Under the pieces are notes generated by a model, which made no database searches, was not told the origin of the DNA, and saw nothing but the letters and a program-made list of their open reading frames with translations. A stretch of DNA of 64,000 nt, from positions 192,001 to 256,000 of the forward strand of contig JACQID010000004.1 in NCBI GenBank assembly GCA_016198685.1. The letters are read 5' to 3'. The position numbers were made by a program, and so were the translations under genes. Shown here piece by piece: positions 1,553-48,194 of the stretch. The first letter of the stretch is position 1. Each line of letters starts with the position of its first letter. This stretch comes from Candidatus Aenigmatarchaeota archaeon. GTDB lineage: Archaea > Aenigmatarchaeota > Aenigmatarchaeia > GW2011-AR5.

Positions 1553-2221
1553 ATGGCATTCCAACTCTCTCCTTCTTCTATCAACCTCATGTTTGAATGC
1601 GAAAAATGCTTCTGGCTCCAGATAGTCAAAAAGGTTAGGCGGCCTGCTGGCATATTTCCTTCTCTTCCATCCGGGATGGACAGGATTCTCAAGCAGCATT
1701 TTGACCGCTTCGCAGCCAAAGGCAAACTGCCGCCGGAACTGAGGGACAACGAGCATACAAAAGGCATTGCACTGTTCAGTGATATGGACGCCTTGAACGT
1801 ATGGCGGAATAACAGGAAAGGATTGACCTATACTGACTCTGGCACAGGCATCCTACTCAGAGGAGCAGTAGATAATATTCTGACGAAAGACGGCAAGCTT
1901 ATAGTTCTGGACTACAAAACCCGCGGCTATCCGTTGAAAGACGATACCCATGAACATTATGCCAGCCAGATGCATCTGTATAATTACCTGCTGAAGCAGA
2001 ACGGCCACGATACCGAGGATTTCGCCCTTCTGCTTTTCTATCATCCTAATACTGTAACAGAAGCAGGAGAAGTAATCTTTAACACAGATCTAATAAGAAT
2101 GTCATCAAACGCCCAAGAAGGCGAGAAAATCTTCCAGAAAGCGATAGGCGTCCTGCAAGGAGAGGAGCCGGACGCCTCAAATAACTGCGGATTTTGCGAG
2201 TTTCGGAGTAATGGCAACTGA
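1553..2221 (+). CDS. PD-(D/E)XK nuclease, Cas4/RecB-like (ORF track start 1508)
   Basis: LSPSSI..FECEKCFW, GAVD, VLDYKT, Q...Y and terminal CGFC. Confidence 0.85.
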   Translation: MAFQLSPSSINLMFECEKCFWLQIVKKVRRPAGIFPSLPSGMDRILKQHFDRFAAKGKLPPELRDNEHTKGIALFSDMDALNVWRNNRKGLTYTDSGTGILLRGAVDNILTKDGKLIVLDYKTRGYPLKDDTHEHYASQMHLYNYLLKQNGHDTEDFALLLFYHPNTVTEAGEVIFNTDLIRMSSNAQEGEKIFQKAIGVLQGEEPDASNNCGFCEFRSNGN

Positions 2222-2311
2222 TTAAACTTAAGACAAACCGTAATTATAGTGATTTAGATAGCAAGGCGAAAAAGTTAAAGGAAGTTTGTAGAGGCTATAG
2301 AAGAGTGAATA

Positions 2312-4330
2312 ATGAGGAGAGCAGAAGTGAATAATTTTCAGGAAAAAGTAACGTTTATTTGGGACTTGGCAGATTTACTGAGAGGAGTTTATAAAAGAAA
2401 CGAATATCAGAAGGTGATACTGCCTTTTACTGTATTAAAAAGATTCGATTGCGTTCTTGCCCATTCAAAAAAGACACTTCTCGAATCTTACAACAAATAT
2501 AAGAACCAGTTTGAAAACTTGGAGCATATTCTTCAGGATTCTGCCAAAGATAAAGACGGAAATCCTCTTGGCTTTTACAACTATTCAAAATACGATTTTA
2601 GAACGTTGCTAGAAGATCCAGAGCACATAGAACAGAATCTTTTGCACTATCTTGATTCTTTCAGCAAAAATGTTCAGGATATATTTGAGAACTTCTCCAT
2701 AAAAACCCATATAGCCAATTTAGCCAAGTCTGACTTACTGTTTATTTTAATCAAAAAGTTTTCAGACTCAAAAGTTGACTTGCATCCAGATATTGTTTCT
2801 AATCATGAGATGGGCATGATTTTTGAGGAACTGATACGAAAATTTGCAGAACAATCCAACGAAGAAGCAGGAGAACACTTTACGCCAAGAGACGTTGTTG
2901 AAGTGATGACTAAACTTATTTTTGTAGAGAATGGAGTTCATCTGAAGAATAAAGACATTATTAAGACAGTTTACGACCCAGCATGTGGAACAGGAGGTAT
3001 GCTGACAAGCTGCAAGGAGTTTATCAAAAAGCTGAATAATTCTGTTGAAATTGTTTTGTATGGGCAAGAAGTCAATCCAGAGATATACGCAATATGCAAG
3101 GCTGACATGCTAATGAAGGGCGAAAATGACGACAATATTAAAGGAGCTTACAGCACGCTTTCAAAGGACAAGTTCAGAGACATGAAATTTGATTTTATGA
3201 TTTCTAATCCTCCTTACGGTAGAAAATGGGAACAGGATGAAGCAGATGTAATCAAAGAAGCTGAAAGAGGCTTTGAAGGAAGATTTGGAGCAGGACTTCC
3301 ACGTATAAACGACGGGCAACTCCTCTTTTTACAACACATGGTTTCAAAAATGAAAGTCAAGGAAAAATCAAGAATCGCTATTATTACAAATGGCTCTCCT
3401 TTATTTACAGGCGATGCTGGTTCTGGGGAAAGCGACATCAGAAAGTGGATGATTGAAAATGATTATATTGCTCTTCCAGACCAGTTATTTTACAACACAG
3501 CAATAAAAACTTACATCTGGGTATTGACCAACAAGAAGCCAAAAGAAAGAATTGGTAAAATCCAGCTCGTAGATGCAACTTCGAGATTTAAGAAAATGCG
3601 TAAAAGCTTGGGCTTCAAAAGACATATTTTAGGGGAAGACGATATTAAAGAAATACTCCAGTTTTATGAAAAGTTTGAAGCTGGTAAACATGTCAAGATA
3701 TTCAATAATGAGGAATTTGGGTATACTAAAGTAATCATTGAAAGACCCACGCAGTTAAACTACCAAGTCAGTGATGAACGGCTTGAGGATATGTATTCTG
3801 TCAGTGCCTTTGTAAAGCTTGCCGAAAGCAAAAAAGAAAACCCAGAACTGAAACTAAAAGAAGAGGAAGAAGGCAAAAAGAAGCAGAAAGAAATAATAGA
3901 AGCTCTAAAGACAGTCGGCAATAAACTGTATAAAAATTTGGATGAATTTGAAGCGAAGGTAAAACAAGCATTACATATATTTGACTTGAAACCAAACTTT
4001 ATCAAGAGCATAATTTTGGCGTTGTCCGAACATGATGATACAGCAGAATATGTTCTGGACGTCAAAGGCAAAAGACAGCCTGATTCTAACCTACGGGACT
4101 CTGAAAAAATACCGTTGGGGCAAGATATAGAGAAATATTTTGTAAAAGAAGTCAAACCATATTACCCAGATGCATGGATGGACAGGAGCAAGGACAAAGT
4201 TGGCTATGAAATAAACTTCACACAGTATTTCTATAAGTATCAACCCCCAAGACCTCTTGAGGAGATAGAAAGAGACATAAAGAAAGTGATTAAAGAGATA
4301 CAGGAACTCATTAAGGAGGATGTTGAATGA
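2312..4330 (+). CDS. hsdM: Type I R-M methyltransferase subunit (m6A)
   Basis: GEHFTPRDV, YDPACGTGGML, YGQE, ISNPPYG. Confidence 0.96.
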   Translation: MRRAEVNNFQEKVTFIWDLADLLRGVYKRNEYQKVILPFTVLKRFDCVLAHSKKTLLESYNKYKNQFENLEHILQDSAKDKDGNPLGFYNYSKYDFRTLLEDPEHIEQNLLHYLDSFSKNVQDIFENFSIKTHIANLAKSDLLFILIKKFSDSKVDLHPDIVSNHEMGMIFEELIRKFAEQSNEEAGEHFTPRDVVEVMTKLIFVENGVHLKNKDIIKTVYDPACGTGGMLTSCKEFIKKLNNSVEIVLYGQEVNPEIYAICKADMLMKGENDDNIKGAYSTLSKDKFRDMKFDFMISNPPYGRKWEQDEADVIKEAERGFEGRFGAGLPRINDGQLLFLQHMVSKMKVKEKSRIAIITNGSPLFTGDAGSGESDIRKWMIENDYIALPDQLFYNTAIKTYIWVLTNKKPKERIGKIQLVDATSRFKKMRKSLGFKRHILGEDDIKEILQFYEKFEAGKHVKIFNNEEFGYTKVIIERPTQLNYQVSDERLEDMYSVSAFVKLAESKKENPELKLKEEEEGKKKQKEIIEALKTVGNKLYKNLDEFEAKVKQALHIFDLKPNFIKSIILALSEHDDTAEYVLDVKGKRQPDSNLRDSEKIPLGQDIEKYFVKEVKPYYPDAWMDRSKDKVGYEINFTQYFYKYQPPRPLEEIERDIKKVIKEIQELIKEDVE

Positions 4331-4426
4331 TGACAAAAAGACAAACTACCCATAGACAATTAACAAATTTAGCAAGAGGAAGGCAGATATTGTTTCAAAA
4401 TCAATTAAGACGGAGCGGAAAAGAAA

Positions 4427-5710
4427 ATGAAACTCAAAGCCTATTCTAAATATAAGAAATCTGGGATTCAGTGGATTGGCGATATACCTGAAGGCTGGTC
4501 ATTAGAAAGGTTTAAGCTTAGATTTAAAAGTAAAAAAGGAAAAATACCCGATAATCTCGATGTTACCAATGGCGAGGGTTACTTACCCTATTTAAGTATG
4601 GAATACTTAAGGGGCAAAGAAGAAAATGCTCAGTTTTCAAACGATCCTACTGCATTAAAAGTTGAAGACCATGATTTATTGTTATTATGGGACGGATCAA
4701 ATGCAGGGGAATTTATTTCTGCTAAAAAAGGGATCCTATCTTCTACAATGGTGAAACTTAACATACAAAGAATGAATACTCAATATTGCAAATATTTATG
4801 TTCAGGTTTTGAACCCATGCTAAGAGATTTAACTGTTGGAATGGGAATTCCTCATGTAAATGGTGATGTTTTGGGTAATATTCAAATCCCAATTATAGGT
4901 ATTGGAGAACAAAAAAAAGCAACTTCTTTTCTCGACTCCAAAACCTCACAAATCTCCAAAACAATCTCAGCCGACAAACAACTTATAGAGCTTCTCAAAG
5001 AAAAAAGAACTGCTTTAATCAATCACGTTGTAACGAAAGGCCTGAATCCTAAAGCAAAAATGAAAGATTCTGGGATTGAATGGATTGGAGAAGTGCCTGA
5101 AGGGTGGGAAGTTAAAAAAATTAAATTTATTGGAAATATTGTTTTAGGGAAAATGCTTACCGACAAAGAACATGATGGTCATATACAAAAACCATATCTA
5201 CGAGCACAAAATATTCTATGGGAGAAGGTTGATGTTTCTGATGTCAAAGAAATGTGGTTTTCATCTGGAGAGTTAAAAAGATTTAGATTGAAAAATAATG
5301 ATTTACTTGTATCGGAAGGTGGGGAAGCTGGAAGAACAGCTCTATGGAAAGGAGAAATAGATGAATGTTATATTCAAAATTCGGTGCAAAAAGTAACGTT
5401 AGATGAAGGATGTATTCCAAATTATTTTCTGTATTTATTTGAGTCTTATGGTAAAAGGGGCATTTTTGATTCAGTTGTGAGTAGGGTTAGCATAGCTCAT
5501 TTAACAAGAGAAAAACTAAAAGAGATAATTTGCACAGTCCCTCCAAAACAAGAACAAGCCCAAATAGCAAAATTTCTCGACAAAGCAACCTCAAAAATAG
5601 ACCAAACTATCCAGAAAATTGAGGCAAAAATAGAGCTTCTTGAGGAATTTAAAAAATCATTAATACATCATGTTGTTACAGGCAAGGTAGATGTAAGGTG
5701 TGAAATATGA
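4427..5710 (+). CDS. hsdS: Type I R-M specificity subunit
   Basis: Two target-recognition domains bounded by conserved repeats SGIQWIGDIPEGW / SGIEWIGEVPEGW and coiled-coil spacers; C-terminal SLIHHVVTGK. Confidence 0.95.
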   Translation: MKLKAYSKYKKSGIQWIGDIPEGWSLERFKLRFKSKKGKIPDNLDVTNGEGYLPYLSMEYLRGKEENAQFSNDPTALKVEDHDLLLLWDGSNAGEFISAKKGILSSTMVKLNIQRMNTQYCKYLCSGFEPMLRDLTVGMGIPHVNGDVLGNIQIPIIGIGEQKKATSFLDSKTSQISKTISADKQLIELLKEKRTALINHVVTKGLNPKAKMKDSGIEWIGEVPEGWEVKKIKFIGNIVLGKMLTDKEHDGHIQKPYLRAQNILWEKVDVSDVKEMWFSSGELKRFRLKNNDLLVSEGGEAGRTALWKGEIDECYIQNSVQKVTLDEGCIPNYFLYLFESYGKRGIFDSVVSRVSIAHLTREKLKEIICTVPPKQEQAQIAKFLDKATSKIDQTIQKIEAKIELLEEFKKSLIHHVVTGKVDVRCEI

Positions 5711-7245
5711 AAAAGAAATTAAAACAAGTCGCTGAACTAGAAAATCAGGAGCAAGAATCCGATTTTTCTGCCATTAGTTCTAAACTAGATATCAAAGAGC
5801 CGACTAAGAGAAAAATGAAAGATGTTCATAGAGATTTTAAAGAGGGCAATATAATTCTCCAACCAGAATTTCAAAGAGATTTTATATGGACAAAAAATAA
5901 GCAAGCGGAATTAATTAAATCTATATGGAGAGGGATTCCTTTACCGATGTTTTATTTTTCAGTAGAGCGTAATGGAAAATTCGAGGTAATTGATGGGCAA
6001 CAAAGATTAACTACTATATTTGGATACATTTCATCTCAACTGATAAAAGACAGAAGGATAAGGGATAAATTAATAAAAAAAATAAAAATTAAAGATGAAA
6101 ATAAAAATAATATTTCCAGAGATGATATAATAAAAAGAGTTCTAGAGGATACAAACATTTATTGCGTAGAAATTCCTGAAGTTGGTTTGAATACAAATGA
6201 TAAGTTTGAAATATTTAGATCGTTAAACCTTGGAGCCACTCCTCTTAAATTTCAAGAAATAAGAAATGCAATTTTTCAAAAAGAAATACCTCATCTTAAT
6301 AAATCATTAAAGAGCGGAGCACAAAAAATAGAAAGATTGACAGGTATGAAAAATTTTAGAATGACTTTTGAGGACCTTGTTTTACGATTTTATATCATAA
6401 ATGAGAAAGGATATGATAAAAGAGTATCTGACCAGCTTAAAAACAATGTTGAGCTAAAGAACATATTTACTGAAGAAAAAATTAAAACAATAAATTCTAA
6501 ATTTAATAGATTTATTAATTATATGAACAAAGTCTTTGGTAGAAAATCCTTTCAAACTTTATCTAAAATAAAAGAAAATAAACGGCTTCCAGATAATAAA
6601 TGGGAGAAACACGCTTTTTCCGCTAAGATTAATCAAGGTTTATTTCACTTGTTTTCATATTATATCCCTAAATATTCTAAGCATCGATTAAATAAAAAAA
6701 GTGATAAAAAGATTAGAGAAGAATTTGTAAAGTTATTAAAAAATTCAAGGTTCCTGAATTTAATAACTGGTTCTGGAACAGATTCTACAAAAAATATTAA
6801 AAAATCGTCATCTCTTTTTGAAAAGTTATTCTTAAATGTATGTTTCGGGGACTGGTACAAAATCGATAAAAGAAATATCCCAAGAGAGCTTAAAACGACC
6901 ATGATAGAAAATGTTCCATTTTGCTATCTGTGTTATGGTAAACTAAAAAGGATTGAACATATAGAAAATTTTTCTGATATTCATGGAGAACACATAAAAT
7001 CTTTCAAAGAAGGGAACAAATCAACTTACAGAAATATTCTCTTAGCCCATAAAAAATGCAACTCTGAAAAGTCTGCAAAACGCCTTGAGGATTACAGAAA
7101 ACAGGATAAATCAATCCTAAAAAGAAAGAAAAATAAACAAAATATTAAAGAATACATAAGGTGTTTAAAAGAATGGAATACATATTACCCACTACACGCC
7201 TACAAAAAATTAGTTAAATATGCTAAGCGAGATAAAAAACTGTGA
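5707..7245 (+). CDS. DUF262 (ParB/Srx-like) + HNH nuclease, GmrSD-like
   Basis: QPEFQRDFIW, PLP, VIDGQQRLTT, F..LN.G..L; C-terminal CYLC..HGEHIKSF..GNKS...NILLAHKKCN. Confidence 0.85.
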   Translation: MKKKLKQVAELENQEQESDFSAISSKLDIKEPTKRKMKDVHRDFKEGNIILQPEFQRDFIWTKNKQAELIKSIWRGIPLPMFYFSVERNGKFEVIDGQQRLTTIFGYISSQLIKDRRIRDKLIKKIKIKDENKNNISRDDIIKRVLEDTNIYCVEIPEVGLNTNDKFEIFRSLNLGATPLKFQEIRNAIFQKEIPHLNKSLKSGAQKIERLTGMKNFRMTFEDLVLRFYIINEKGYDKRVSDQLKNNVELKNIFTEEKIKTINSKFNRFINYMNKVFGRKSFQTLSKIKENKRLPDNKWEKHAFSAKINQGLFHLFSYYIPKYSKHRLNKKSDKKIREEFVKLLKNSRFLNLITGSGTDSTKNIKKSSSLFEKLFLNVCFGDWYKIDKRNIPRELKTTMIENVPFCYLCYGKLKRIEHIENFSDIHGEHIKSFKEGNKSTYRNILLAHKKCNSEKSAKRLEDYRKQDKSILKRKKNKQNIKEYIRCLKEWNTYYPLHAYKKLVKYAKRDKKL

Positions 7246-7251
7246 AGAAAA

Positions 7252-9837
7252 ATGACAACTGACACATCAGAAAAAGCATTTCAGAGGGATATTGTTGCTC
7301 ACTTGGTTAGTACTGGCTACCATGAAAGAAACACCCATAATTTTGATAAAACCGTTTGCCTCGACCCGGAATTGGTATTGAAATTCATTCAAGATACACA
7401 GGAAAAGGAATGGACAAAGTTCCAGAAAATCTATGGTGACAAAGCTGGGCAAAAGTTCTTTTATCGGCTTGTAACAGAAATTGAGAAAAAAGGCACTATA
7501 AATGTCCTAAGAGATGGGTTCAAGGATGTCGGGTGCTATTTCAAGCTTTTCTATCCAAAACCTAACAATAAGAAAAACCCTGATTTATTTGAGAAGTTTG
7601 GCAAAAATATCTTCTCGGTTGTTGATGAATTGGAATACGAAAAGAAAGAAAAAGGAAATAGGCTGGATTTGGTCATTTTCATAAACGGGCTTCCTATAAT
7701 CACAATAGAGCTTAAAGATACGTTCTCTCAGGGCGTGGAAATAGCAATAAAGCAGTATAAGGAGAATAGAGACCCAAAGGAAAAAATATTCCAAAATTGT
7801 TTTGTCCACTTCGCTATGAGCGATGAAAAGATATTCATGGCGGCAAAGCTGGAAGGCTGGAAAACGAGATTCCTGCCTTTCAATAAGGGCATTGAAAATC
7901 CGACAGTCCAAAACGACTACAAGACTTCCTACTTGTATAACGATATTTTACAGATAAATAAGCTGTCGAAGCTCATAGCCAATTTCATCTATGTGGAGAA
8001 AGATGGCGATGAAGACAAACCAATTTTCCCAAGATACCACCAGCTTGACTGTGTTAATAAACTTCTGGAGGATGCAAAACCAAGCAAAAACTATCTCATT
8101 GAACACAGTGCGGGAAGCGGGAAAACAAAAACTATCGCATGGCTCGCTCATGGATTGATAAACAAATTTGACCAGCAGGATGACAGAATCTATGATATGG
8201 TTATTGTCATTTCGGACAGAAGGGTTATAGATAAACAGTTACAGAATCAAGTCCAATCTATTGAAAAGGTCAAAGGAATTGTAGACGTAATTGATGAGAA
8301 AAAGACTTCGCAAGACCTTAAAGAAGCCCTGAAGACTGGAAGCAATATTGTAGTAACAACGTTGCAGAAGTTCCCTTACATACTGGAAGAAGTCAAGGAT
8401 TTGCCGAAAAGAAAATACGGGGTTATCATTGATGAAGCCCATTCATCCCAGTCAGGGACTTTGGCAAGAAAAATGAAGCAGATTTTGAGCACGAACAGTC
8501 TTGAAGAAGCCGAATCTATGGAAAGGGATATTGATGACGAGGTTGAGGATGAGATTCTTGAGGAAGTCGAATCATTCAGAAATTTAAAGAACATAAGTTT
8601 CTTCGTTTTTACGGCAACCCCAAAGAATAAAACTCTCGAAATGTTTGGAGTAAAAGATAATAGAGGAAAATATCACCCATTCCACACGTACTCAATGAAA
8701 CAGGCTATAGAAGAAGGGTTTATTCTCAATGTCCTTGATAATTATCTCACTTATGAGACATATTTTAAGCTTGTCAAGAAAATTGTAGACGACCCAGAAT
8801 ATGATGAAAAGAAAGCAAAAAGACTTCTAAGGAATTTTGTTGAAAAGCACCCCCATGCTATAATGAAAAAGACGGGGATTATGCTTGACCATTTCATGAA
8901 TTCTACAATCAATAAAATAGGGGGCAAAGCAAGGGCAATGGTAGTTACACGGTCAAGATTGCACGCCGTTCTTTACAAAAGGGCTTTTGACAAGGCAATA
9001 AAAGAGAACAATTTACCAATAAAAGCTTTGGTTGCTTTCACTGGCGTTGTAAAGCATGACGAGCAGGAATATACAGAAAGCTCGATGAATCAACTACCCC
9101 CAAAAAAGACTATTGAAAATGCCTTTGAGGAAGAACCCTATAGAATCCTGATAGTTGCAAATAAGTATCAGACTGGATTTGACCAGCCTCTTTTGCATAC
9201 TATGTATGTTGACAAGATGTTAAATGGAATTACGGCAGTTCAGACATTATGCAGAATCAACAGGATTCATCCTCATAAAAATGATACACTGATATTCGAT
9301 TTTGCGAATAAAACGGAAGTTATACAGAAGGCTTTCCAACCATACTATGGAGAAACTTACCTCAAGGAAGGTACAGACCATCATAAACTATACGAATTAC
9401 AAACAAAACTTCTCGATTATCAGGTTTTTGATGAGTCGGATGTCGATGCCTTTGTAAGGGCTTGGAAAAAAGAAGAATCACAGCCAAAATTGCACAATAT
9501 TTTAAGTCCTGTCGTTGAGGAATTTAAGAAAAAGGAGAAGAAAGGGCAAGTAGGATTCAAAAAAACTATGAAGAGGTATCAAAGTATATACGCATTCCTG
9601 TCTCAATTGATTCCGTTTTCTGATGTACGCCTTGAGAAGATATACATATTTAACAAATTCTTGACCAAAAAACTTCCTTCAATAAATAACCCTCTGCCTT
9701 ATACAGTTTTGGAAGATGTTGATATGGATTCCTATAAAATTGTCAGTAAAGGGAAGAAGGAATTCACGCTTCAGATTGAAGGTGAATTGACGCCCATATC
9801 CGCGGGAGCTGGGAATATGCTCCTAATGTCAACATGA
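7252..9837 (+). CDS. hsdR: Type I R-M restriction subunit, main part (frameshifted near the C-terminus)
   Basis: RLDLVIFINGLPIITIELKD nuclease motif, HSAGSGKT, IIDEAH, QTGFDQP. Confidence 0.93.
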   Translation: MTTDTSEKAFQRDIVAHLVSTGYHERNTHNFDKTVCLDPELVLKFIQDTQEKEWTKFQKIYGDKAGQKFFYRLVTEIEKKGTINVLRDGFKDVGCYFKLFYPKPNNKKNPDLFEKFGKNIFSVVDELEYEKKEKGNRLDLVIFINGLPIITIELKDTFSQGVEIAIKQYKENRDPKEKIFQNCFVHFAMSDEKIFMAAKLEGWKTRFLPFNKGIENPTVQNDYKTSYLYNDILQINKLSKLIANFIYVEKDGDEDKPIFPRYHQLDCVNKLLEDAKPSKNYLIEHSAGSGKTKTIAWLAHGLINKFDQQDDRIYDMVIVISDRRVIDKQLQNQVQSIEKVKGIVDVIDEKKTSQDLKEALKTGSNIVVTTLQKFPYILEEVKDLPKRKYGVIIDEAHSSQSGTLARKMKQILSTNSLEEAESMERDIDDEVEDEILEEVESFRNLKNISFFVFTATPKNKTLEMFGVKDNRGKYHPFHTYSMKQAIEEGFILNVLDNYLTYETYFKLVKKIVDDPEYDEKKAKRLLRNFVEKHPHAIMKKTGIMLDHFMNSTINKIGGKARAMVVTRSRLHAVLYKRAFDKAIKENNLPIKALVAFTGVVKHDEQEYTESSMNQLPPKKTIENAFEEEPYRILIVANKYQTGFDQPLLHTMYVDKMLNGITAVQTLCRINRIHPHKNDTLIFDFANKTEVIQKAFQPYYGETYLKEGTDHHKLYELQTKLLDYQVFDESDVDAFVRAWKKEESQPKLHNILSPVVEEFKKKEKKGQVGFKKTMKRYQSIYAFLSQLIPFSDVRLEKIYIFNKFLTKKLPSINNPLPYTVLEDVDMDSYKIVSKGKKEFTLQIEGELTPISAGAGNMLLMST

Positions 9838-10175
9838 AGTTGTCCAAGATTCTCAAAGACCTGAATGACGCATTCGGGACAGACTTTACAGAAGATGATA
9901 GAGTATTTTTGGGTAGGGTAAAGGATAATATGCTACAAAATGAGGATTTGCTCAATAAAATGGAGCACAACTCTAAGGAAAATGTAAAGGCAGTTTTTGA
10001 CAAATATTTCAATCAGGAAATGACAAAGCTACTAAATAGTAATTTGAAACTTTACAAAAGAATAGTAGAAAATGACAAATTGAAGACGAAGCTTAAATCA
10101 GACTTATTTAGTTTGGTTTATTTTGAATTTAATAAAAGAAAAAAGAAAACTCTCAGAGAGGAAGAAGTAAAATAA
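9834..10175 (+). pseudogene. hsdR: Detached HsdR C-terminal domain in a shifted frame
   Basis: KLSKILKDLNDAFGTDFTEDD matches the usual HsdR tail; overlaps the upstream stop in another frame. Confidence 0.7.
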
Positions 10176-11052: not shown

Positions 11053-12249
11053 TTAAGTCTTAGCTTCACTGAACAGCCCCTCATACTTCTTCTTTTCGGC
11101 TATCTTGGTGAAACGCTTCTTGATGTGCGGGAACTCCTCGCCTAATGCGCTTAGCGTCTCAAAGAGATAGTCGTCCAGAAGGGCTTTTTTGTTCGGTTCG
11201 TCTAACGGCAGGTAGCATTTGCCGCACAGCTTTGAGGCCGGGTCATTCGGCTGCCCGCAGCGCTCGCATGGCTTTACAGAGATTACTGGTTTGCCATTGC
11301 TTCCGTTTAGGGTTATGCCGTGCTGCTTCAGTATGGCTTCGTCCATGCTTTTTCCGCTCAGGTGGGTGTAAGTGCTTATGGTATCGGATTTGCGCCAGCC
11401 GAAGAATTCCTTCATTTGCCTGTCTGTGAATGTGCTGGCCATGAACGTGGCTCTGGCATGGCGGAAGGCATGTGGATTTACGCTCTTGTGTATATCCGCT
11501 TTTTGGGAAGCTTCTTTCAGCATCTTACGAATTAAGCCGTATGTCAGGTATCTGTCACGGCCTCTCACTCTTTCATGAACCCACAGATATGCTTCAGGGT
11601 CGTTCTTGTATGGATGGCTGTCCAGCCAGTCTTTCAGCGCCGGCGTGGAAGCTACTATGCGTATTCTTCTGTCGCCTGTTTTCCCAGAGACTCGCAGGAC
11701 GGCTCCGTATTCGTCAAATGCTACGTTCTTCATTTTAAGGGGCAGAAACTCGCCTACCCTTGTGCCAGACTCGTAAAGGCAAAGAATGAAAGCCCTGTCC
11801 CTTATGGTTCTTGCGTTTATGGCTATCGCCTTTATCTCGTCTTCCGTCAAAACGTCGTCAGGCAGCAGCGTCTTGGAACTGTTCTTTATCTTAATCCATG
11901 ATACGTCTTCCGTATCCTTGCCCCTGAGAAATTTGTAGTATTTCCGTAAAAAGACTTTGAAATCCCGTTTTGTCCAGTCTGCCCATCTGGTGCTGGCTGA
12001 TATGTCCGCCACGAGTTGGATTATGTCACTCTTGTTAGCGTTTCGTAGTGGTTTCTTCAACATAGTGGAAAGTGTTTTCATACTGTAGAAATACTTGGTT
12101 ATCCTGCCTTGTGTTATGCCCTCTGCCATCAATTGGGTATAGAAGCGTTGTGCATCCTCTTTGTCTTCCTCGTAAAGCGGGGAATCGCTTCCGAGGTATT
12201 GTTTCGCCACTTTGGCCAAGGTCTTCTCGTAATTGTGTATGTTTCCCAT
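11053..12249 (-). CDS. int: Tyrosine recombinase/integrase with C-terminal Zn ribbon
   Basis: Catalytic set LYESGTRVGE, GKTG, HAFRH, FFGW, TYTH; CERC..CGKC. Confidence 0.95.
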   Translation of the reverse strand: MGNIHNYEKTLAKVAKQYLGSDSPLYEEDKEDAQRFYTQLMAEGITQGRITKYFYSMKTLSTMLKKPLRNANKSDIIQLVADISASTRWADWTKRDFKVFLRKYYKFLRGKDTEDVSWIKIKNSSKTLLPDDVLTEDEIKAIAINARTIRDRAFILCLYESGTRVGEFLPLKMKNVAFDEYGAVLRVSGKTGDRRIRIVASTPALKDWLDSHPYKNDPEAYLWVHERVRGRDRYLTYGLIRKMLKEASQKADIHKSVNPHAFRHARATFMASTFTDRQMKEFFGWRKSDTISTYTHLSGKSMDEAILKQHGITLNGSNGKPVISVKPCERCGQPNDPASKLCGKCYLPLDEPNKKALLDDYLFETLSALGEEFPHIKKRFTKIAEKKKYEGLFSEAKT

Positions 12250-43681: not shown

Positions 43682-46249
43682 TTATCTTTCCGGAATTAAA
43701 TGAAGAAGATTCAGGCGCCTAAATTCTTGATATAACTCATTATCACTTTTTCTCAACTCGCGTCTGGTTGCATTAGTGTGGTTCATAAGAAGCCGCAAAA
43801 GTAAATCTTCCACTACAGCCTTGGGCTCATAAAGTGTCATATTCCTTGGCATTGTTATGGTGATATATTCATTTCCATCGATAGTTGTTGCAGGTAGGCT
43901 CTCTAGAATCGTTTTCATATTTGTTCTTAAGTTAGTAAAAAGATAACGGGACACAGTATCCTGCAGGTCATCTAATCCGCTTTCGTGCTGGAAAGCGAAT
44001 TGCGTGCAGATCTCATGATTTGTTTGGCCATCTATGGATGCATCGGGCTTTCTTTTGCCCCTTTTTGATTCCATCACATTTCTATCTACGTTAAATTCGA
44101 AGTATTCTTTAGGTATTTCAAGGACCGGGTCGGTATATTTTCTAGAGGTGATTACGTAGACAGAGAATTTGCTGTCCTTAGGCTCTGTAGCCATTACCTT
44201 TCCTGACAGTTCCGGTATCACTTCAAATCCCGCAAGTTTCATTCCGGCGTATAACTTGTCTAAATCGAGGTCAAGGTAAGCCGGAAGCGCTTGTATATTG
44301 AATGCACGTTTTCTTGATACGCGATTCTGCTCCTTTATCGACATCTCCCTTTCCCTTATTATGCGTCCGGTCATGTCCGTTCTTTCCAGTTCCGTATGGT
44401 TCAAACCCAGAGAGCACAAAACAAGATCGAACTCGTCATTTGTAAAGGGAAGTGCATGCAAATAGCCCTTGTGATATTCATTATCAGGATGGGCGCCCAT
44501 GATTTTTGCCTTTTCAAAATTGGCAATATTTATGTCAAGACTTACCGTAGGTATTCCCATCGCCATTGAGAGGATGGCGGGTCCGGAGGGGGCATCAAGT
44601 ATTCTTGATATCTTCTCGCCGCTTCCTTGCAAGCCTTCAATTATTCTCTTGTATACTTGTGCAGTTTTTCCAGAGTAAGACATAGGCCAATTATGCATAT
44701 AATAATCTGCAAAATCCGAGGCTGTCCTGCCGTCATTAGCATAGATCAACCTTTCGTTGGATTCAGCGCTTCTACCGGCCATCACAGTCAATATCCTTCT
44801 TACGTGCTGGGCGGGCGTATAAATCACGTCAAGTATAGGTCGTTTTGTATGAACGGGCGAATCTGACACCAGTTTGCCGTCCTCAAGCTTTACCCTTCCG
44901 CCCCTCATGGCAATATCTATAATTCTCTTCTTATCTGACACAAGATGATTTATGCCTGCATCGATGGAGCCTCTGGGATGCATAGGGTAATTGACAACGA
45001 GTTGCGTGATGCGTACCGGCTTTTCCTGACCTCTTCTGTCTATCCTTTTTGTCATTTGATATAGCGGGCCATAACTATATGGAAGATCGAGAAGGAATTC
45101 CTGCGATGCTGCAACCAGTGGAAGCGACTCGCCCATGGTATGCGGATTCGATATCAAGACACAATGCTCCGGGGAATTTTCAAAAAGATGCCTCACAATC
45201 TCGCGTTCGCTTTCTTTGCCCATCCGACCAGTCGGTACGCTGCCGTCTATCCTTAGCGCCTTGTGCTTCTTGTAACGTTCTTCGAGTTTCCGTGTGACAC
45301 CGTTCACAAATCTTGAAGAAAATACAACGCATTTTTCCCCATTTGCTATCGCGTTGCCTACAAGGCGGTCAAGCTCAAGGTATTTCGATGATTCTATATC
45401 GTTTAATTTTTCGCGTAGTACCGGATCTGTTATCATGTCTGGCTCTACAAGAGACGGGTCCAGCGAAGCCTTCCTAAGTTGGTCAAGCTTTTCGGTAGGT
45501 GATATGTCTTCATAGGCAAGAACTGCAGCATAGACTGCTGCATGATCTGGATTCATTTCCACAAAGCAGGTGCTTATCTCAGGTAATTCGACATCACCTC
45601 TCCTCAGCATTTTCCTGTTCAGGACGCTTCCGAGAACAAGAGGATTTTTTTGATATGCTCTTGCCACATGCCATGGCGTTGGGTAATTTTCAGGCTCAAG
45701 CATGCTTATGAGGTTGAACATATCGGACATGCCGTCCGGCACAGGAGTTGCGGTAAGCAGTGCAAGATATTTCGCCCTGTCCGTTAACCTTCTCATATTA
45801 TACCGGTGCGTCTTGGGGTCTCCTGTATGATGCTCCTCATCAACAATAACATAGTCGGGCTTGAAGTTTTCAAGCGCCTGAGTTACTTTATCCCGCGTAG
45901 TCTTGACGCCAAAAACGTCATGATTGACTATGATGGCATCCGAGTCCAAAACGACCCTATCAAGAGATCGTGTGCCATAGTCATTCAGAAGCGTGGTCCT
46001 TAGCCGAGGATAATTGGTGCCCAGTTGTGACTTCCAGTATTCAAGGCCAGAATTTGGCACTACAGCTAGAGTCTTAGGCATACGGCCCGTGCCTATCTCA
46101 ATGAGCCTGATAGCGCCTATGGCTTGCTGTGTCTTCCCAAAGCCGCCGCCGTCTGCTATGAGTATTCTGCCTTCATCATATATCTTGAAAGAGCCGTACT
46201 CCTGCTGTATATTGGGCCTTATGACCGAGACTTCCCTGTAAGTTGTCAT
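43682..46249 (-). CDS. Divergent SNF2-family helicase/ATPase fused to a class I SAM-methyltransferase-like domain
   Basis: ADGGGFGKT, IVDEEHH, LTATP, S..RIDG, R.DRRGQ; then ILDAPSGPA..SLDIN..LPF....FDLVLCS. Confidence 0.8.
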   Translation of the reverse strand: MTTYREVSVIRPNIQQEYGSFKIYDEGRILIADGGGFGKTQQAIGAIRLIEIGTGRMPKTLAVVPNSGLEYWKSQLGTNYPRLRTTLLNDYGTRSLDRVVLDSDAIIVNHDVFGVKTTRDKVTQALENFKPDYVIVDEEHHTGDPKTHRYNMRRLTDRAKYLALLTATPVPDGMSDMFNLISMLEPENYPTPWHVARAYQKNPLVLGSVLNRKMLRRGDVELPEISTCFVEMNPDHAAVYAAVLAYEDISPTEKLDQLRKASLDPSLVEPDMITDPVLREKLNDIESSKYLELDRLVGNAIANGEKCVVFSSRFVNGVTRKLEERYKKHKALRIDGSVPTGRMGKESEREIVRHLFENSPEHCVLISNPHTMGESLPLVAASQEFLLDLPYSYGPLYQMTKRIDRRGQEKPVRITQLVVNYPMHPRGSIDAGINHLVSDKKRIIDIAMRGGRVKLEDGKLVSDSPVHTKRPILDVIYTPAQHVRRILTVMAGRSAESNERLIYANDGRTASDFADYYMHNWPMSYSGKTAQVYKRIIEGLQGSGEKISRILDAPSGPAILSMAMGIPTVSLDINIANFEKAKIMGAHPDNEYHKGYLHALPFTNDEFDLVLCSLGLNHTELERTDMTGRIIREREMSIKEQNRVSRKRAFNIQALPAYLDLDLDKLYAGMKLAGFEVIPELSGKVMATEPKDSKFSVYVITSRKYTDPVLEIPKEYFEFNVDRNVMESKRGKRKPDASIDGQTNHEICTQFAFQHESGLDDLQDTVSRYLFTNLRTNMKTILESLPATTIDGNEYITITMPRNMTLYEPKAVVEDLLLRLLMNHTNATRRELRKSDNELYQEFRRLNLLHLIPER

Positions 46250-47943
46250 GCCATAGCCTCCTTTTCAGGCATTAATTTCCTGGCTTTCCTTGTGAGCGTT
46301 AAGAATCTCTGGAATTCGTCATAAAGGGTTCCGTGAAGCCATTTCAAGGGTTCGTTACCTTCTGCGATAGCTTTTTCCTTTATCAAGCCGAGCAGGGTTT
46401 CTTCATCCTCATGCGAGGGATATTCATCATTTCGGAGCAGAGACATGTAATAATCCCTTCCTATCTTGAGGAAGCCTTCGCGGAGCATCTTATCGTTGTT
46501 TATTATTGGCATAGGTATGCTCCCTATAACGTCGCCGCCAAAGCCGGACAGGTCCGGTCTTTTGAATCTGCCTATGTAAGGACCCAATGAGGGCAGATAT
46601 TCATATGCCACCTCTTCGTCGACTATGCCAGGATAATAAAGGGCCAGAATCCTCGCGGCAAGCATGTCTATCATGCCACCTGCTGTGCTTCCATGGTAGA
46701 ATAATGACACAACCCTTTGCGCATCTTCATGCGTCTCGACAAACTCCCTGAAGGATGGGGCGTCGTTAATTTTAACGACGGAATTTATACCTCTGCCATT
46801 ATCAAAATTAAAGTTATGCGCTTCTGCTGGTGTCATCGGTGTTATTCCAGCTCTTAATAACCAACGTCTTGCACGAGTATTCTTAATTCCTAAGTATTTT
46901 CCAAGATAATTCGCACTTCTGTAACCAGGATTTTGCTCAACAAGCTTCGCCAAATCCCCATCTGCAATCATTTTGACACCGGTTCTTATTTCATGAGACA
47001 ATAACAAAGCTTCTTGTTGTGTCATCGGTGTTATTCCAGCTCTTAATAACATGCCTTTGGCGCCTGTAGGACTAATTCCCAAATATTTTGCAAGCATACT
47101 TTCACTCGCATATTCAGGGTTTTCTTTAACAATATCTACAAGTTCCTGATCAGTGAGCATTTTTACATCGGGCGAGAAGATAATATGTCTAGATTCAACT
47201 CTAGACATTGGTTCTATCCCAGCTTTTCTCAAATATCTTGCCGCTGCTCCATTACCAATATTTAAGTATGTACTTAGTATGAGAGCACTTCTATACTTAG
47301 GTTCCCGCTCTACAAGTGCTACTAACTCCTGACTTGTTAAAATTTTTACATTAGAGCCATTATATTTGACTAATTTACCTTCAGACAGATTCATAGGTTG
47401 TATGTTTGCAGCGTTCAAATAGTTTCTTGCAGTGCTAGGGCTTACACCTAAATAGCCAGCTAGAATAGTGGGGCTTCTCATGGCAGGATCGTCCTCAATG
47501 AGTTCTTTTAACGCCTCCTCGCTTGGCTTATTCTTATAATGTCCTCCAAGATGCTGTACCAACTTGGCCTCGCTGATAGTCATTGTTTTTATGCCAGCAA
47601 GCAATAGATATCTTGTTGCGGCAGCAGGACTTACACCCAAATGTTTAGATAAAATACTAGGACTTCTCATGGCAGGATCGTCCTCAATGAGTTCTTTTAA
47701 CGCCTCCTCGCTTGGCTTATTCTTATAAGGTTGTTTAAAATGTTGAACCAATTTTCCTTCAGTAATATTCATTGGCTCTATGCCTGCAGATAACAAATAT
47801 TCTCTAGCAGCACTTCTACTCATATTCAAATATGTTGCAAGTGAAGTGCTGCTTCTATACTCAGGATGGTTTTGTACCAGCATTCGCAACGCTTCATTAC
47901 TAATTCTGGTTTTATAAGATGGCATACTTTCATCCTTAACCAA
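46246..47943 (-). CDS. Protein with six tandem ~63-aa HTH-like repeats and a C-terminal helical domain
   Basis: Repeat consensus L..L(V/I)...P.YRS...L..YLG(V/I)S...A..YL..AGI.PM. Confidence 0.85.
   Translation of the reverse strand: MVKDESMPSYKTRISNEALRMLVQNHPEYRSSTSLATYLNMSRSAAREYLLSAGIEPMNITEGKLVQHFKQPYKNKPSEEALKELIEDDPAMRSPSILSKHLGVSPAAATRYLLLAGIKTMTISEAKLVQHLGGHYKNKPSEEALKELIEDDPAMRSPTILAGYLGVSPSTARNYLNAANIQPMNLSEGKLVKYNGSNVKILTSQELVALVEREPKYRSALILSTYLNIGNGAAARYLRKAGIEPMSRVESRHIIFSPDVKMLTDQELVDIVKENPEYASESMLAKYLGISPTGAKGMLLRAGITPMTQQEALLLSHEIRTGVKMIADGDLAKLVEQNPGYRSANYLGKYLGIKNTRARRWLLRAGITPMTPAEAHNFNFDNGRGINSVVKINDAPSFREFVETHEDAQRVVSLFYHGSTAGGMIDMLAARILALYYPGIVDEEVAYEYLPSLGPYIGRFKRPDLSGFGGDVIGSIPMPIINNDKMLREGFLKIGRDYYMSLLRNDEYPSHEDEETLLGLIKEKAIAEGNEPLKWLHGTLYDEFQRFLTLTRKARKLMPEKEAMA
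46831..47050. repeat. 31-bp exact direct repeat with 189-bp period (46831-46861 and 47020-47050)
   Basis: TGTCATCGGTGTTATTCCAGCTCTTAATAAC occurs twice and encodes repeats 5 and 6. Confidence 0.95.
47474..47728. repeat. 66-bp exact direct repeat with 189-bp period (47474-47539 and 47663-47728)
   Basis: CTTCTCATGGCAGGATCGTCC...TTCTTATAA occurs twice and encodes repeats 2 and 3. Confidence 0.95.
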
Positions 47944-48121
47944 TTAGGAAGGAAAGTATAAATACTTTACTATTTATAAGTAATAAATATTTAAGTTTCT
48001 AAATATACTAACGAATGGATGTATGAGTTCGTGACTTTCTATATATTGGGAGATACAAATATAGAAAGTATATGTTCTATTTACTATATTAATCACAATA
48101 AAAATGATATCAAAATTTTAA

Positions 48122-48194
48122 AGCCGCCTGAGGGGATCGAACCCCCGACCTGCAGTTTACAAAACTGCCGCTCTACCAGCTGAGCTAAGGCGGC
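48122..48194 (-). tRNA. tRNA-Thr(TGT), no intron
   Basis: 73-nt cloverleaf with GCAGT-TTTGTAA-ACTGC anticodon arm. Confidence 0.97.

Follow-up and report, generated by a model that had tools for sequence, protein, structure and literature searches.

Two overlapping genes on the minus strand of an archaeal contig raise the question of what a string of putative DNA-binding modules does beside a SNF2 motor that is fused to a methyltransferase, and whether the two form a system of their own. The pair fills positions 43682-47943 of the window, the name used here for the whole 64,000-nucleotide stretch that was analysed (Candidatus Aenigmatarchaeota archaeon, assembly GCA_016198685.1, contig JACQID010000004.1, positions 192,001 to 256,000), and consists of the open reading frames (ORFs) 46246-47943(-) and 43682-46249(-) in a genome of 935 kb (8 contigs, 93.7% complete). 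It is a real, rare system, and represents the two-gene variant of a system more widespread in DPANN archaea, where a further protein resembling the alkylpurine glycosylase AAG/MPG is usually present. The chances are about even that the pair is a two-subunit DNA-targeted enzyme, in which a swappable specificity subunit would guide an ATP-driven methyltransferase to chosen DNA sites. Its parts, including the helix-turn-helix (HTH) units and the C-terminal domain (CTD) of gene 1 and the S-adenosylmethionine (SAM) methyltransferase of gene 2, are as follows:

46246..47925, minus strand: gene 1, reader/adaptor protein, 559 aa from ATG (ORF open back to TTG 47943)
46834..47925, minus strand: array of six type-A HTH units
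47770-47925, 47581-47769, 47392-47580, 47206-47391, 47023-47205, 46834-47022, minus strand: limits of the six HTH units
46249..46761, minus strand: conserved helical CTD, the last ~170 residues of gene 1, an orphan fold and proposed docking domain
46246..46249, minus strand: ATGA stop/start overlap of genes 1 and 2, where the junction reads ...GCATGACA...
43682..46249, minus strand: gene 2, SNF2-methyltransferase fusion, 855 aa
44885..46210, minus strand: SNF2 ATPase core, residues ~14-455, motifs I-VI intact
44120..44761, minus strand: class I SAM-methyltransferase domain of the Methyltransf_11 type with Rrp8/nucleomethylin-like features, residues ~497-710
43685..44119, minus strand: conserved alpha/beta C-terminal tail of no known family, residues 711-855, with a predicted local distance difference test (pLDDT) score of ~80-90 over the last 90 residues

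The two ORFs and the junction sequence bear out an earlier sequence-only reading, which had described two genes joined by an ATGA overlap. For gene 1, the ATG at 47925 (MPSYK...) is a likelier start than the TTG at 47943, since the homologues P0016 and P0017 begin at the equivalent methionine. The stop codon of gene 1 (TGA, 46246-46248) overlaps the ATG of gene 2 at 46249, and an AAGGAGG motif lies inside the end of gene 1 at 46257-46263, 7 nt upstream of that ATG; the overlap and this internal Shine-Dalgarno sequence suggest that the two genes are translationally coupled.

Coupling of reader and enzyme across genomes

The CTD protein adjoins, or is fused to, this SNF2 lineage in 11/11 loci with a visible neighbour (the window, L064/L011, L007, L009, L042, L045, G319, G351, G288, L041, and L040). 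In 10 loci it abuts the SNF2-methyltransferase, and in the eleventh it is fused to SNF2, where the protein P0029 combines the array, the CTD, and SNF2 in one chain (CTD E-value of 2e-8 to the profile; SNF2 part 37% identical to gene 2 residues 16-485, E-value of 7e-79). The gene order permutes, with the reader ahead of the enzyme in seven loci and the enzyme ahead of the reader in three. The enzyme can also be split; for example, in G052, which belongs to the window's own family, SNF2, the array protein, and a stand-alone methyltransferase are three overlapping genes, and this methyltransferase, found via its genome context, has the canonical motif DLGCGPA. Two readers with near-identical CTDs stand behind one enzyme in both L045 and G319. 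Fusion, fission, and permutation with constant co-occurrence are the classic signature of physically interacting subunits, and the subunits would dock through the CTD. The sequence-only reading had proposed a modular DNA reader functionally coupled to the SNF2/methyltransferase protein, and had named co-occurrence in related genomes as a check; that check was run, and the constant adjacency or fusion, the permuted order, and the variable reader beside a conserved enzyme strongly support the coupling.

The system is rare. The CTD has no match in Pfam, the PDB, or the ESM Atlas, and its profile found 10 proteins among 1.84 billion (1.84e9) protein representatives; within the class it is present in 5/371 genomes, scattered over four families, and a metagenome scan with the CTD alignment A2 returned one locus, L064. 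Similarly, a set of 5.8 billion clusters contains only five close homologues of gene 2, and a word-indexed search of proteins of 219-746 aa returned no stand-alone relative consisting of the methyltransferase plus tail. Viral contigs yielded no relatives of either the CTD or the methyltransferase/tail. The predicted complex of the CTD and gene 2 residues 14-855 received a score of 0.00, in a prediction where the fold of the partner was itself uncertain.

The two subunits evolve at very different rates. Between the window and L064, its closest relative, nonsynonymous divergence (pN) is 0.36-0.49 for the gene 1 array, 0.04-0.07 for the gene 1 CTD, 0.078 for gene 2 (85% identical), and 0.11-0.16 for the flanking npdG-like and pepM1 genes, which are syntenic downstream of the pair. 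Judged by these values, the enzyme is more conserved than the housekeeping genes around it and the reader array several-fold less so, a divergence that resembles, by analogy, the behaviour of specificity subunits. Synonymous divergence (pS) over gene 2 and the CTD (43682-46761) was 0.26-0.66 with a mean of 0.44 in the same comparison, and 0.67-0.70 in the flanking npdG-like and pepM1 genes; the lower pS of the operon could reflect codon-level constraint or a more recent exchange between lineages.

Variation of the reader extends to the kinds of module that it is built from. CTD proteins combine HTH modules of at least four types into mosaic arrays of 4 to 9 units. Type A modules are those of the window and also occur in P0016 (5 units), P0017 (4 units), and P0025 (4 units), while type B modules resemble the HTHs of transposases and CENP-B and form arrays of up to 9 units, type C modules resemble region 4 of sigma-70, and type D modules resemble the homing-endonuclease-associated repeat. 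Module types are combined within P0024 and P0025.

A third gene, which like the Rrp8-like character of the methyltransferase lay beyond the view of the sequence-only reading, completes the operon in most relatives. A Pur_DNA_glyco (AAG/MPG) homologue lies in or beside the operon in nine loci (L007, L009, L042, L044, L045, G319, G351, L041, and G052), either upstream, downstream, or divergent and in flanking contexts that differ among loci, and its Pfam family, PF02245, is carried by only 6/70 genomes of the order. The profile of these AAG-like proteins matches human AAG at 4e-34. Where human AAG has its catalytic Glu (E125, a numbering confirmed on 1BNK and 7XFH), A, G, or W is present in 8/8 system-linked proteins with a visible N-terminus, all of which read ET[A/G]A[Y/F] or ETWPY, as opposed to E[T/D]EAY in four canonical copies from the same order. 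The system-linked proteins have also lost 9 residues over the His136 loop, and a C-terminal motif, ADNCLGYYRL, sets them apart. By their residues, these proteins lack the catalytic Glu of an active AAG/MPG enzyme. The AAG mutants E125A and E125Q are inactive with DNA binding retained (PMC5363859), and because Glu125 is lost and such mutants still bind DNA, the AAG-like partners are most likely non-catalytic binders of flipped purines. In L045 (1298-1942), the AAG-like protein contains an insertion of ~45 aa that resembles the homing-endonuclease-associated repeat of the reader arrays (VDEAFDELMVELGRVPTSSELEERH). The L009 and L042 contigs, which carry the three-gene version, have a eukaryotic-type topoisomerase IB gene (Topoisom_I) a few genes away.

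Domains of the two proteins

The array occupies the N-terminal 364 residues of gene 1 in units of 61-63 aa with a period of 189 nt, and the six units are pairwise 28-68% identical at the protein level. Units 2 and 3 are the closest, with 75% DNA identity and an uninterrupted 66-nt identical patch over helix 1, and their recognition halves differ. Tandem Repeats Finder missed the repeats of gene 1, whose units have drifted too far apart at the DNA level, and the 189-nt pair was found by a separate repeat search. In Pfam, eight HTH families match gene 1 when summed over the repeats (best HTH_11, 4e-11), and no single unit passes alone. An AlphaFold2 (AF2) model of two units, built from 13 aligned double units, reached a pLDDT of 78 overall and 81-88 in the unit cores and folds each unit as a three-helix HTH (H1, H2-turn-H3) followed by a linker helix; how the two units are oriented to each other is not fixed (predicted template modelling score of 0.44), which fits beads on a string and is probably why Foldseek found no match to the two-unit model at E <= 0.001. 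Single units (~45 residues) align in VIA almost only to HTH and winged HTH (wHTH) DNA binders, including FapR, the HTHs of the Mos1 and SETMAR transposases, FtsK gamma, Lrp/AsnC, MarR, and phage repressor, at Z-scores of 3-5, which are low, as expected for units of this length. In a comparison of 15 type-A units the scaffold positions are constant, and variation falls at the start of helix 2 and at recognition-helix positions 2-4 and 6-7. The six-unit HTH-like array of the sequence-only reading thus finds support in repeat analysis, Pfam, the AF2 model, and the per-unit alignments, and these models argue that the units are helix-turn-helix domains; the array is predicted to bind DNA.

The N-terminal half of gene 2, in which the sequence-only reading had recognised SNF2 motifs I-VI, is assigned to the SNF2 family of ATPases on three lines of sequence evidence that uphold that reading. 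SNF2-rel_dom (PF00176) matches gene 2 at 5.5e-15 in Pfam, the gene 2 family profile matches ISWI at 2e-31 and a Sulfolobus Rad54-like protein at 2e-29, and motifs I, II, III, and VI (GxGKT, DExH, TATP, and Q..KR.DR.GQ) are invariant in six sequences.

The SAM-binding fold of that reading is borderline in the window protein and clear in its relatives, since Methyltransf_11 (PF08241) matches 6/6 family members at up to 2e-13, and an Atlas model of the domain aligns to Methyltransf_11 clusters with target-normalised TM-scores of up to 0.75. Residues ~497-710 are therefore classed as a putative class I SAM methyltransferase that is predicted to bind SAM. The sole specific family that recurs is Methyltransf_8 (PF05148, Rrp8), which matches 7/12 members at 1e-3 to 5e-8; no more than about four relatives reach its cut-off of 27 bits, and for the window protein there is no match at all. 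The top structural match is nucleomethylin (2zfu; Z of 7.3, root-mean-square deviation of 3.9 A over 139 residues), obtained with a low-confidence model. No match to N6_Mtase, N6_N4_Mtase, MethyltransfD12, or DNA_methylase was found in the gene 2 family with Pfam and NCBIfam, and by every model and motif used the domain is predicted not to be a DNA methyltransferase of the amino or C5 type. The ratio of nonsynonymous to synonymous substitution rates (dN/dS) is ~0.1 in the SNF2 part of gene 2 and likewise in its methyltransferase part; the methyltransferase domain is thus under purifying selection despite an odd motif I.

A distant cousin of gene 2 was seen in L013 (1084-4500; G028, 'Ca. Woesearchaeota'), with at least 1139 aa and 34% identity over the N-lobe. 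Its N-terminal extension is helical and 270 aa long, ~90 aa are inserted between its helicase lobes, and its end resembles Methyltransf_11. The contig is short and showed no separate reader gene. Compared with the CTD profile, the extension (P0022) reached an hhalign probability of 0.85%, which establishes no homology.

Possible functions of the pair

If the pair is a DNA-targeted methyltransferase, the six HTH modules of gene 1 would each read a short stretch of DNA and would together read a long composite site, at which the CTD would hold the SNF2-methyltransferase. ATP hydrolysis by the SNF2 motor could then engage or distort double-stranded DNA and so give the methyltransferase access to its target, which the Rrp8-like domain would methylate there. 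The target would most likely be a purine base made accessible by the motor, a choice suggested by the Rrp8-like domain and the AAG-like partner of the relatives, where the disabled AAG-like protein would probably flip out (methyl)purines and so bind or read them. The patchy distribution and the turnover of the reader are in keeping with a defence or epigenetic role.

Several observations weigh against this proposal. The AAG-like gene is absent from the window genome and from L064, and the purine argument is therefore borrowed from cousins. The methyltransferase of the window is the doubtful member of its family, with a borderline Methyltransf_11 match (5e-4, 21.1 bits against a cut-off of 21.2) and a motif I (LDAPSGPA) that is the most degenerate and least canonical of all, and the domain could merely bind SAM. 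Gene 2 lacks DPPY and PCQ motifs, with the motif IV position reading CSLGL(N/H), and methyltransferases of its type are known from the methylation of rRNA, small molecules, and proteins. SAMTOR, a SAM sensor, is among the top structural matches of the methyltransferase model. The AF2 model of gene 2 residues 455-855 is itself poor (pLDDT of 54, six sequences), and because only its last 90 residues are confident, the fold matches of the methyltransferase serve as leads. A defence role is further weakened by the housekeeping genes around the pair and by the lack of a nuclease or other effector at the window locus. A more specific version of the proposal is a natural mix-and-match platform, in which interchangeable HTH modules of at least four kinds, every one recognising a few base pairs, would be combined to define long sites and, via a common docking domain, would guide an ATP-driven, Rrp8-like enzyme that writes methylpurines into double-stranded DNA, possibly lesions of the 1-methyladenine or 3-methyladenine type (m1A/m3A), with the dead AAG as mark reader or clamp. 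This version is unlikely.

A serious rival, itself unlikely, is the regulation of chromatin or transcription through a protein substrate or the sensing of SAM. The array would bind at certain promoters or other loci and bring in the SNF2 motor, which would remove histones, Alba, or RNA polymerase, and the methyltransferase would modify a chromatin protein or gate the motor as a SAM sensor. The SNF2 core is closest to remodellers of the ISWI/Rad54 type and to RapA, the methyltransferase type fits enzymes that act on proteins or small molecules, with nucleomethylin and SAMTOR as top structural matches, and the window neighbours are housekeeping genes. Repeat elements upstream of gene 1 could also be part of an operator or a promoter. 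One of them, a perfect inverted repeat of 11 nt (ACTTTCTATAT/ATATAGAAAGT, 48034-48044 / 48059-48069) with a 14-nt spacer, could be an autoregulatory operator, and GAAAGTATA occurs twice upstream of gene 1 (47952-47960 and 48064-48072) and nowhere else in the window, against 0.47 occurrences expected, with a count of 2 reached in 5/100 shuffles. Regulation leaves the recurrent AAG-like partner unexplained, however, and the sporadic distribution (5/371 genomes), two readers per enzyme, and extreme array turnover would be unusual for a housekeeping regulator. As the role of the pair, sequence-specific marking in conflict with mobile DNA is favoured over gene regulation.

Another rival is a weapon against viruses or plasmids, in which the reader would find the sequence of an invader, the enzyme would install replication-blocking methylpurines (m1A, m3A), and the dead AAG-like protein would clamp or shield the lesions in relatives. 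The hypervariable modular reader, the patchy distribution, and an AAG-like partner without its catalytic Glu would suit this idea, as would Rrp8, which is an N1-adenine methyltransferase, and the toxin-antitoxin or PIN genes and the ResIII/RE_endonuc gene near some loci. SNF2 helicases also occur in DISARM, BREX type 3, Zorya, and Dpd, with weak matches of the pair to those models. Such a weapon is nevertheless decidedly unlikely: hard-wired recognition of an invader sequence is unlike the discrimination between self and non-self of known defence systems, relatives are missing from the viral contigs searched, no defence island surrounds the window locus, and there is no full-length match to a PADLOC model.

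A DNA-repair accessory is very unlikely. A SNF2 translocase and an AAG-like lesion binder, which are linked in relatives, would find alkylation damage in the manner of CSB, Rad5, or Mfd, with the array as a general clamp, but the catalytic Glu is lost in all eight AAG-like proteins that could be scored, the window version has no AAG-like gene at all, and repair would need neither fast-evolving sequence-specific arrays nor a methyltransferase domain. Finally, an effector exported to act on the DNA of a host archaeon, or a selfish homing-like element built from homing-endonuclease modules, is highly improbable, for although DPANN archaea live on hosts and some module types resemble NUMOD1 and the homing-endonuclease-associated repeat in weak Pfam matches, no nuclease, integrase, transposase, or secretion signal is linked to the pair, the downstream synteny is stable between two species, and the search of viral contigs found no relatives.

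If the proposal of a DNA-targeted methyltransferase is true, DPANN archaea, whose tiny genomes hold little that is dispensable, keep a multi-subunit DNA-modifying machine of an unreported plan: a shuffled-HTH specificity subunit and a SNF2 motor fused to a non-canonical methyltransferase, mostly with a disabled alkylpurine glycosylase. It would also offer a new way for systems resembling restriction-modification (R-M) to diversify their specificity and a natural, modular, protein-based means of addressing DNA. Should methylpurines be what is written, the machine would represent a novel class of immunity or epigenetics in archaea, and its chemistry would be new among the ways of methylating DNA at chosen sequences. 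The system lends itself to direct tests, since it consists of a small number of soluble parts and its hypervariable arrays should differ in their target sites.

Known systems and the setting of the locus

No PADLOC, NCBIfam, or Pfam system model fits the pair, and literature searches found no description of such a system. The parts and their arrangement are new, and the logic of a motor, a methyltransferase, and a specificity subunit has precedents in Type I R-M, DISARM, and Dnmt5. The view of the sequence-only reading that the pair is not Type I/III R-M, BREX, or DISARM holds, as the family models are not matched. Type I R-M (HsdS/HsdM/HsdR) is similar in having a separate, fast-diversifying specificity subunit with conserved docking parts, a superfamily 2 ATP-driven translocase together with a methyltransferase, and the possibility of several alternative specificity genes per enzyme; in contrast, the pair lacks N6_Mtase and a nuclease, and has 4-9 HTH modules rather than two target recognition domains and SNF2 rather than HsdR. 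The only match to Type I/III R-M is a generic one to the ResIII helicase lobe (7e-5), with no N6_Mtase, Methylase_S, or nuclease domain. DISARM (DrmD with DrmMI/II) and BREX type 3 (BrxHII with PglX) similarly encode a SNF2-family helicase and a methyltransferase together, but the methyltransferase class of gene 2 differs from theirs. The DrmD models stay far below their thresholds (24 and 20 bits, where 610 and 950 are required), the sole PADLOC match to BREX is a partial one to BrxHI|BrxHII (residues 130-197, 33 bits), and DrmA/B/C, PglZ, BrxC, and PglX were not found beside the window pair or the eleven related loci where adjacent genes were called or scanned.

The best functional analogy for gene 2 is Dnmt5 of Cryptococcus neoformans, which also joins a SNF2 ATPase and a SAM methyltransferase in one polypeptide. 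The domain order of Dnmt5 is the opposite, with the DNMT ahead of SNF2, and Dnmt5 is targeted by hemimethylation and a chromodomain, as opposed to a separate HTH-array subunit here. Dnmt5 is furthermore eukaryotic with a C5-cytosine DNMT domain, whereas gene 2 is archaeal and Methyltransf_11/Rrp8-like. Methylation by Dnmt5 requires ATP hydrolysis, which is coupled to base flipping and independent of nucleosomes (bioRxiv 10.1101/2020.01.05.895227). If the proposal for the pair is true, the principle that a SNF2 motor licenses an adjoined methyltransferase extends to prokaryotes.

Other likenesses concern single parts. Rrp8/nucleomethylin resembles the methyltransferase through the recurrence of Methyltransf_8 in the gene 2 family and through the top structural match; Rrp8 acts on rRNA and, unlike gene 2, is not fused to a motor. 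The partner protein of the relatives is clearly homologous to AAG/MPG and differs from it in the replaced Glu125, the His136-loop deletion, and a C-terminal motif of its own, besides being absent from the window genome. Homing-endonuclease arrays (NUMOD1 and HNH_repeat) and tandem homeodomains share with the readers the beads-on-string organization of helical DNA-binding modules that vary in number and order, but the reader arrays have no nuclease, are tied to a conserved CTD, and give weak Pfam matches.

Two further features lie on the 5' side of gene 1:

47926..48121, minus strand: AT-rich region of 196 nt with a TATA-like TTTATA
48122..48194, minus strand: tRNA-Thr(TGT), a neighbour, 178 nt upstream of the gene 1 ORF

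A Pfam scan of the neighbours identified peptidases, an NpdG-like protein, PCC, and MscS, all housekeeping genes, and no defence island, nuclease, or other effector beside the pair. The tRNA-Thr(TGT) of the sequence-only reading is present at 48122-48194(-), but the island that was supposed to have formed there did not stand up. A repeat search found no att-like repeat of the tRNA-Thr 3' end at the locus, the G+C of the pair region (0.42-0.46) is ordinary with no compositional shift, and the sole integrase of the genome (window 11356-11853) lies 32 kb away from the pair. L064 has the same pair and the same downstream genes with no tRNA within 6 kb, and carries a PIN gene and a ResIII/RE_endonuc gene upstream of the pair, where the window has the tRNA. 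A search of four same-genus genomes (70-89% complete) did not turn up the pair. Their tRNA matches are not orthologous in 3/4 cases, two of which are tRNA-Thr(CGT), and the orthologous tRNA-Thr(TGT) occurs in G004 alone, on a contig too short to settle synteny. The region around the pair is therefore variable, and integration at the tRNA is not supported.

The upstream genes of L064 encode an 847-aa ResIII helicase with a RE_endonuc domain and a PIN-domain protein (L064 328-2871 and 4729-5223), and a PIN gene similar to that of L064 was found on the 3' side of tRNA-Thr in G004. Compared with the window copy, the G004 orthologue of the tRNA (L038, G004:C95, 1026-1123) contains 25 additional nt in the region of the D-arm, possibly an intron at a non-canonical position, and ARAGORN miscalls this tRNA as tRNA-Gly. 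The Phage_integrase-family gene at 11356-11853 adjoins a block of low G+C (2001-10000, 0.31-0.38 against ~0.45 elsewhere), which may be an integrated element unrelated to the pair.

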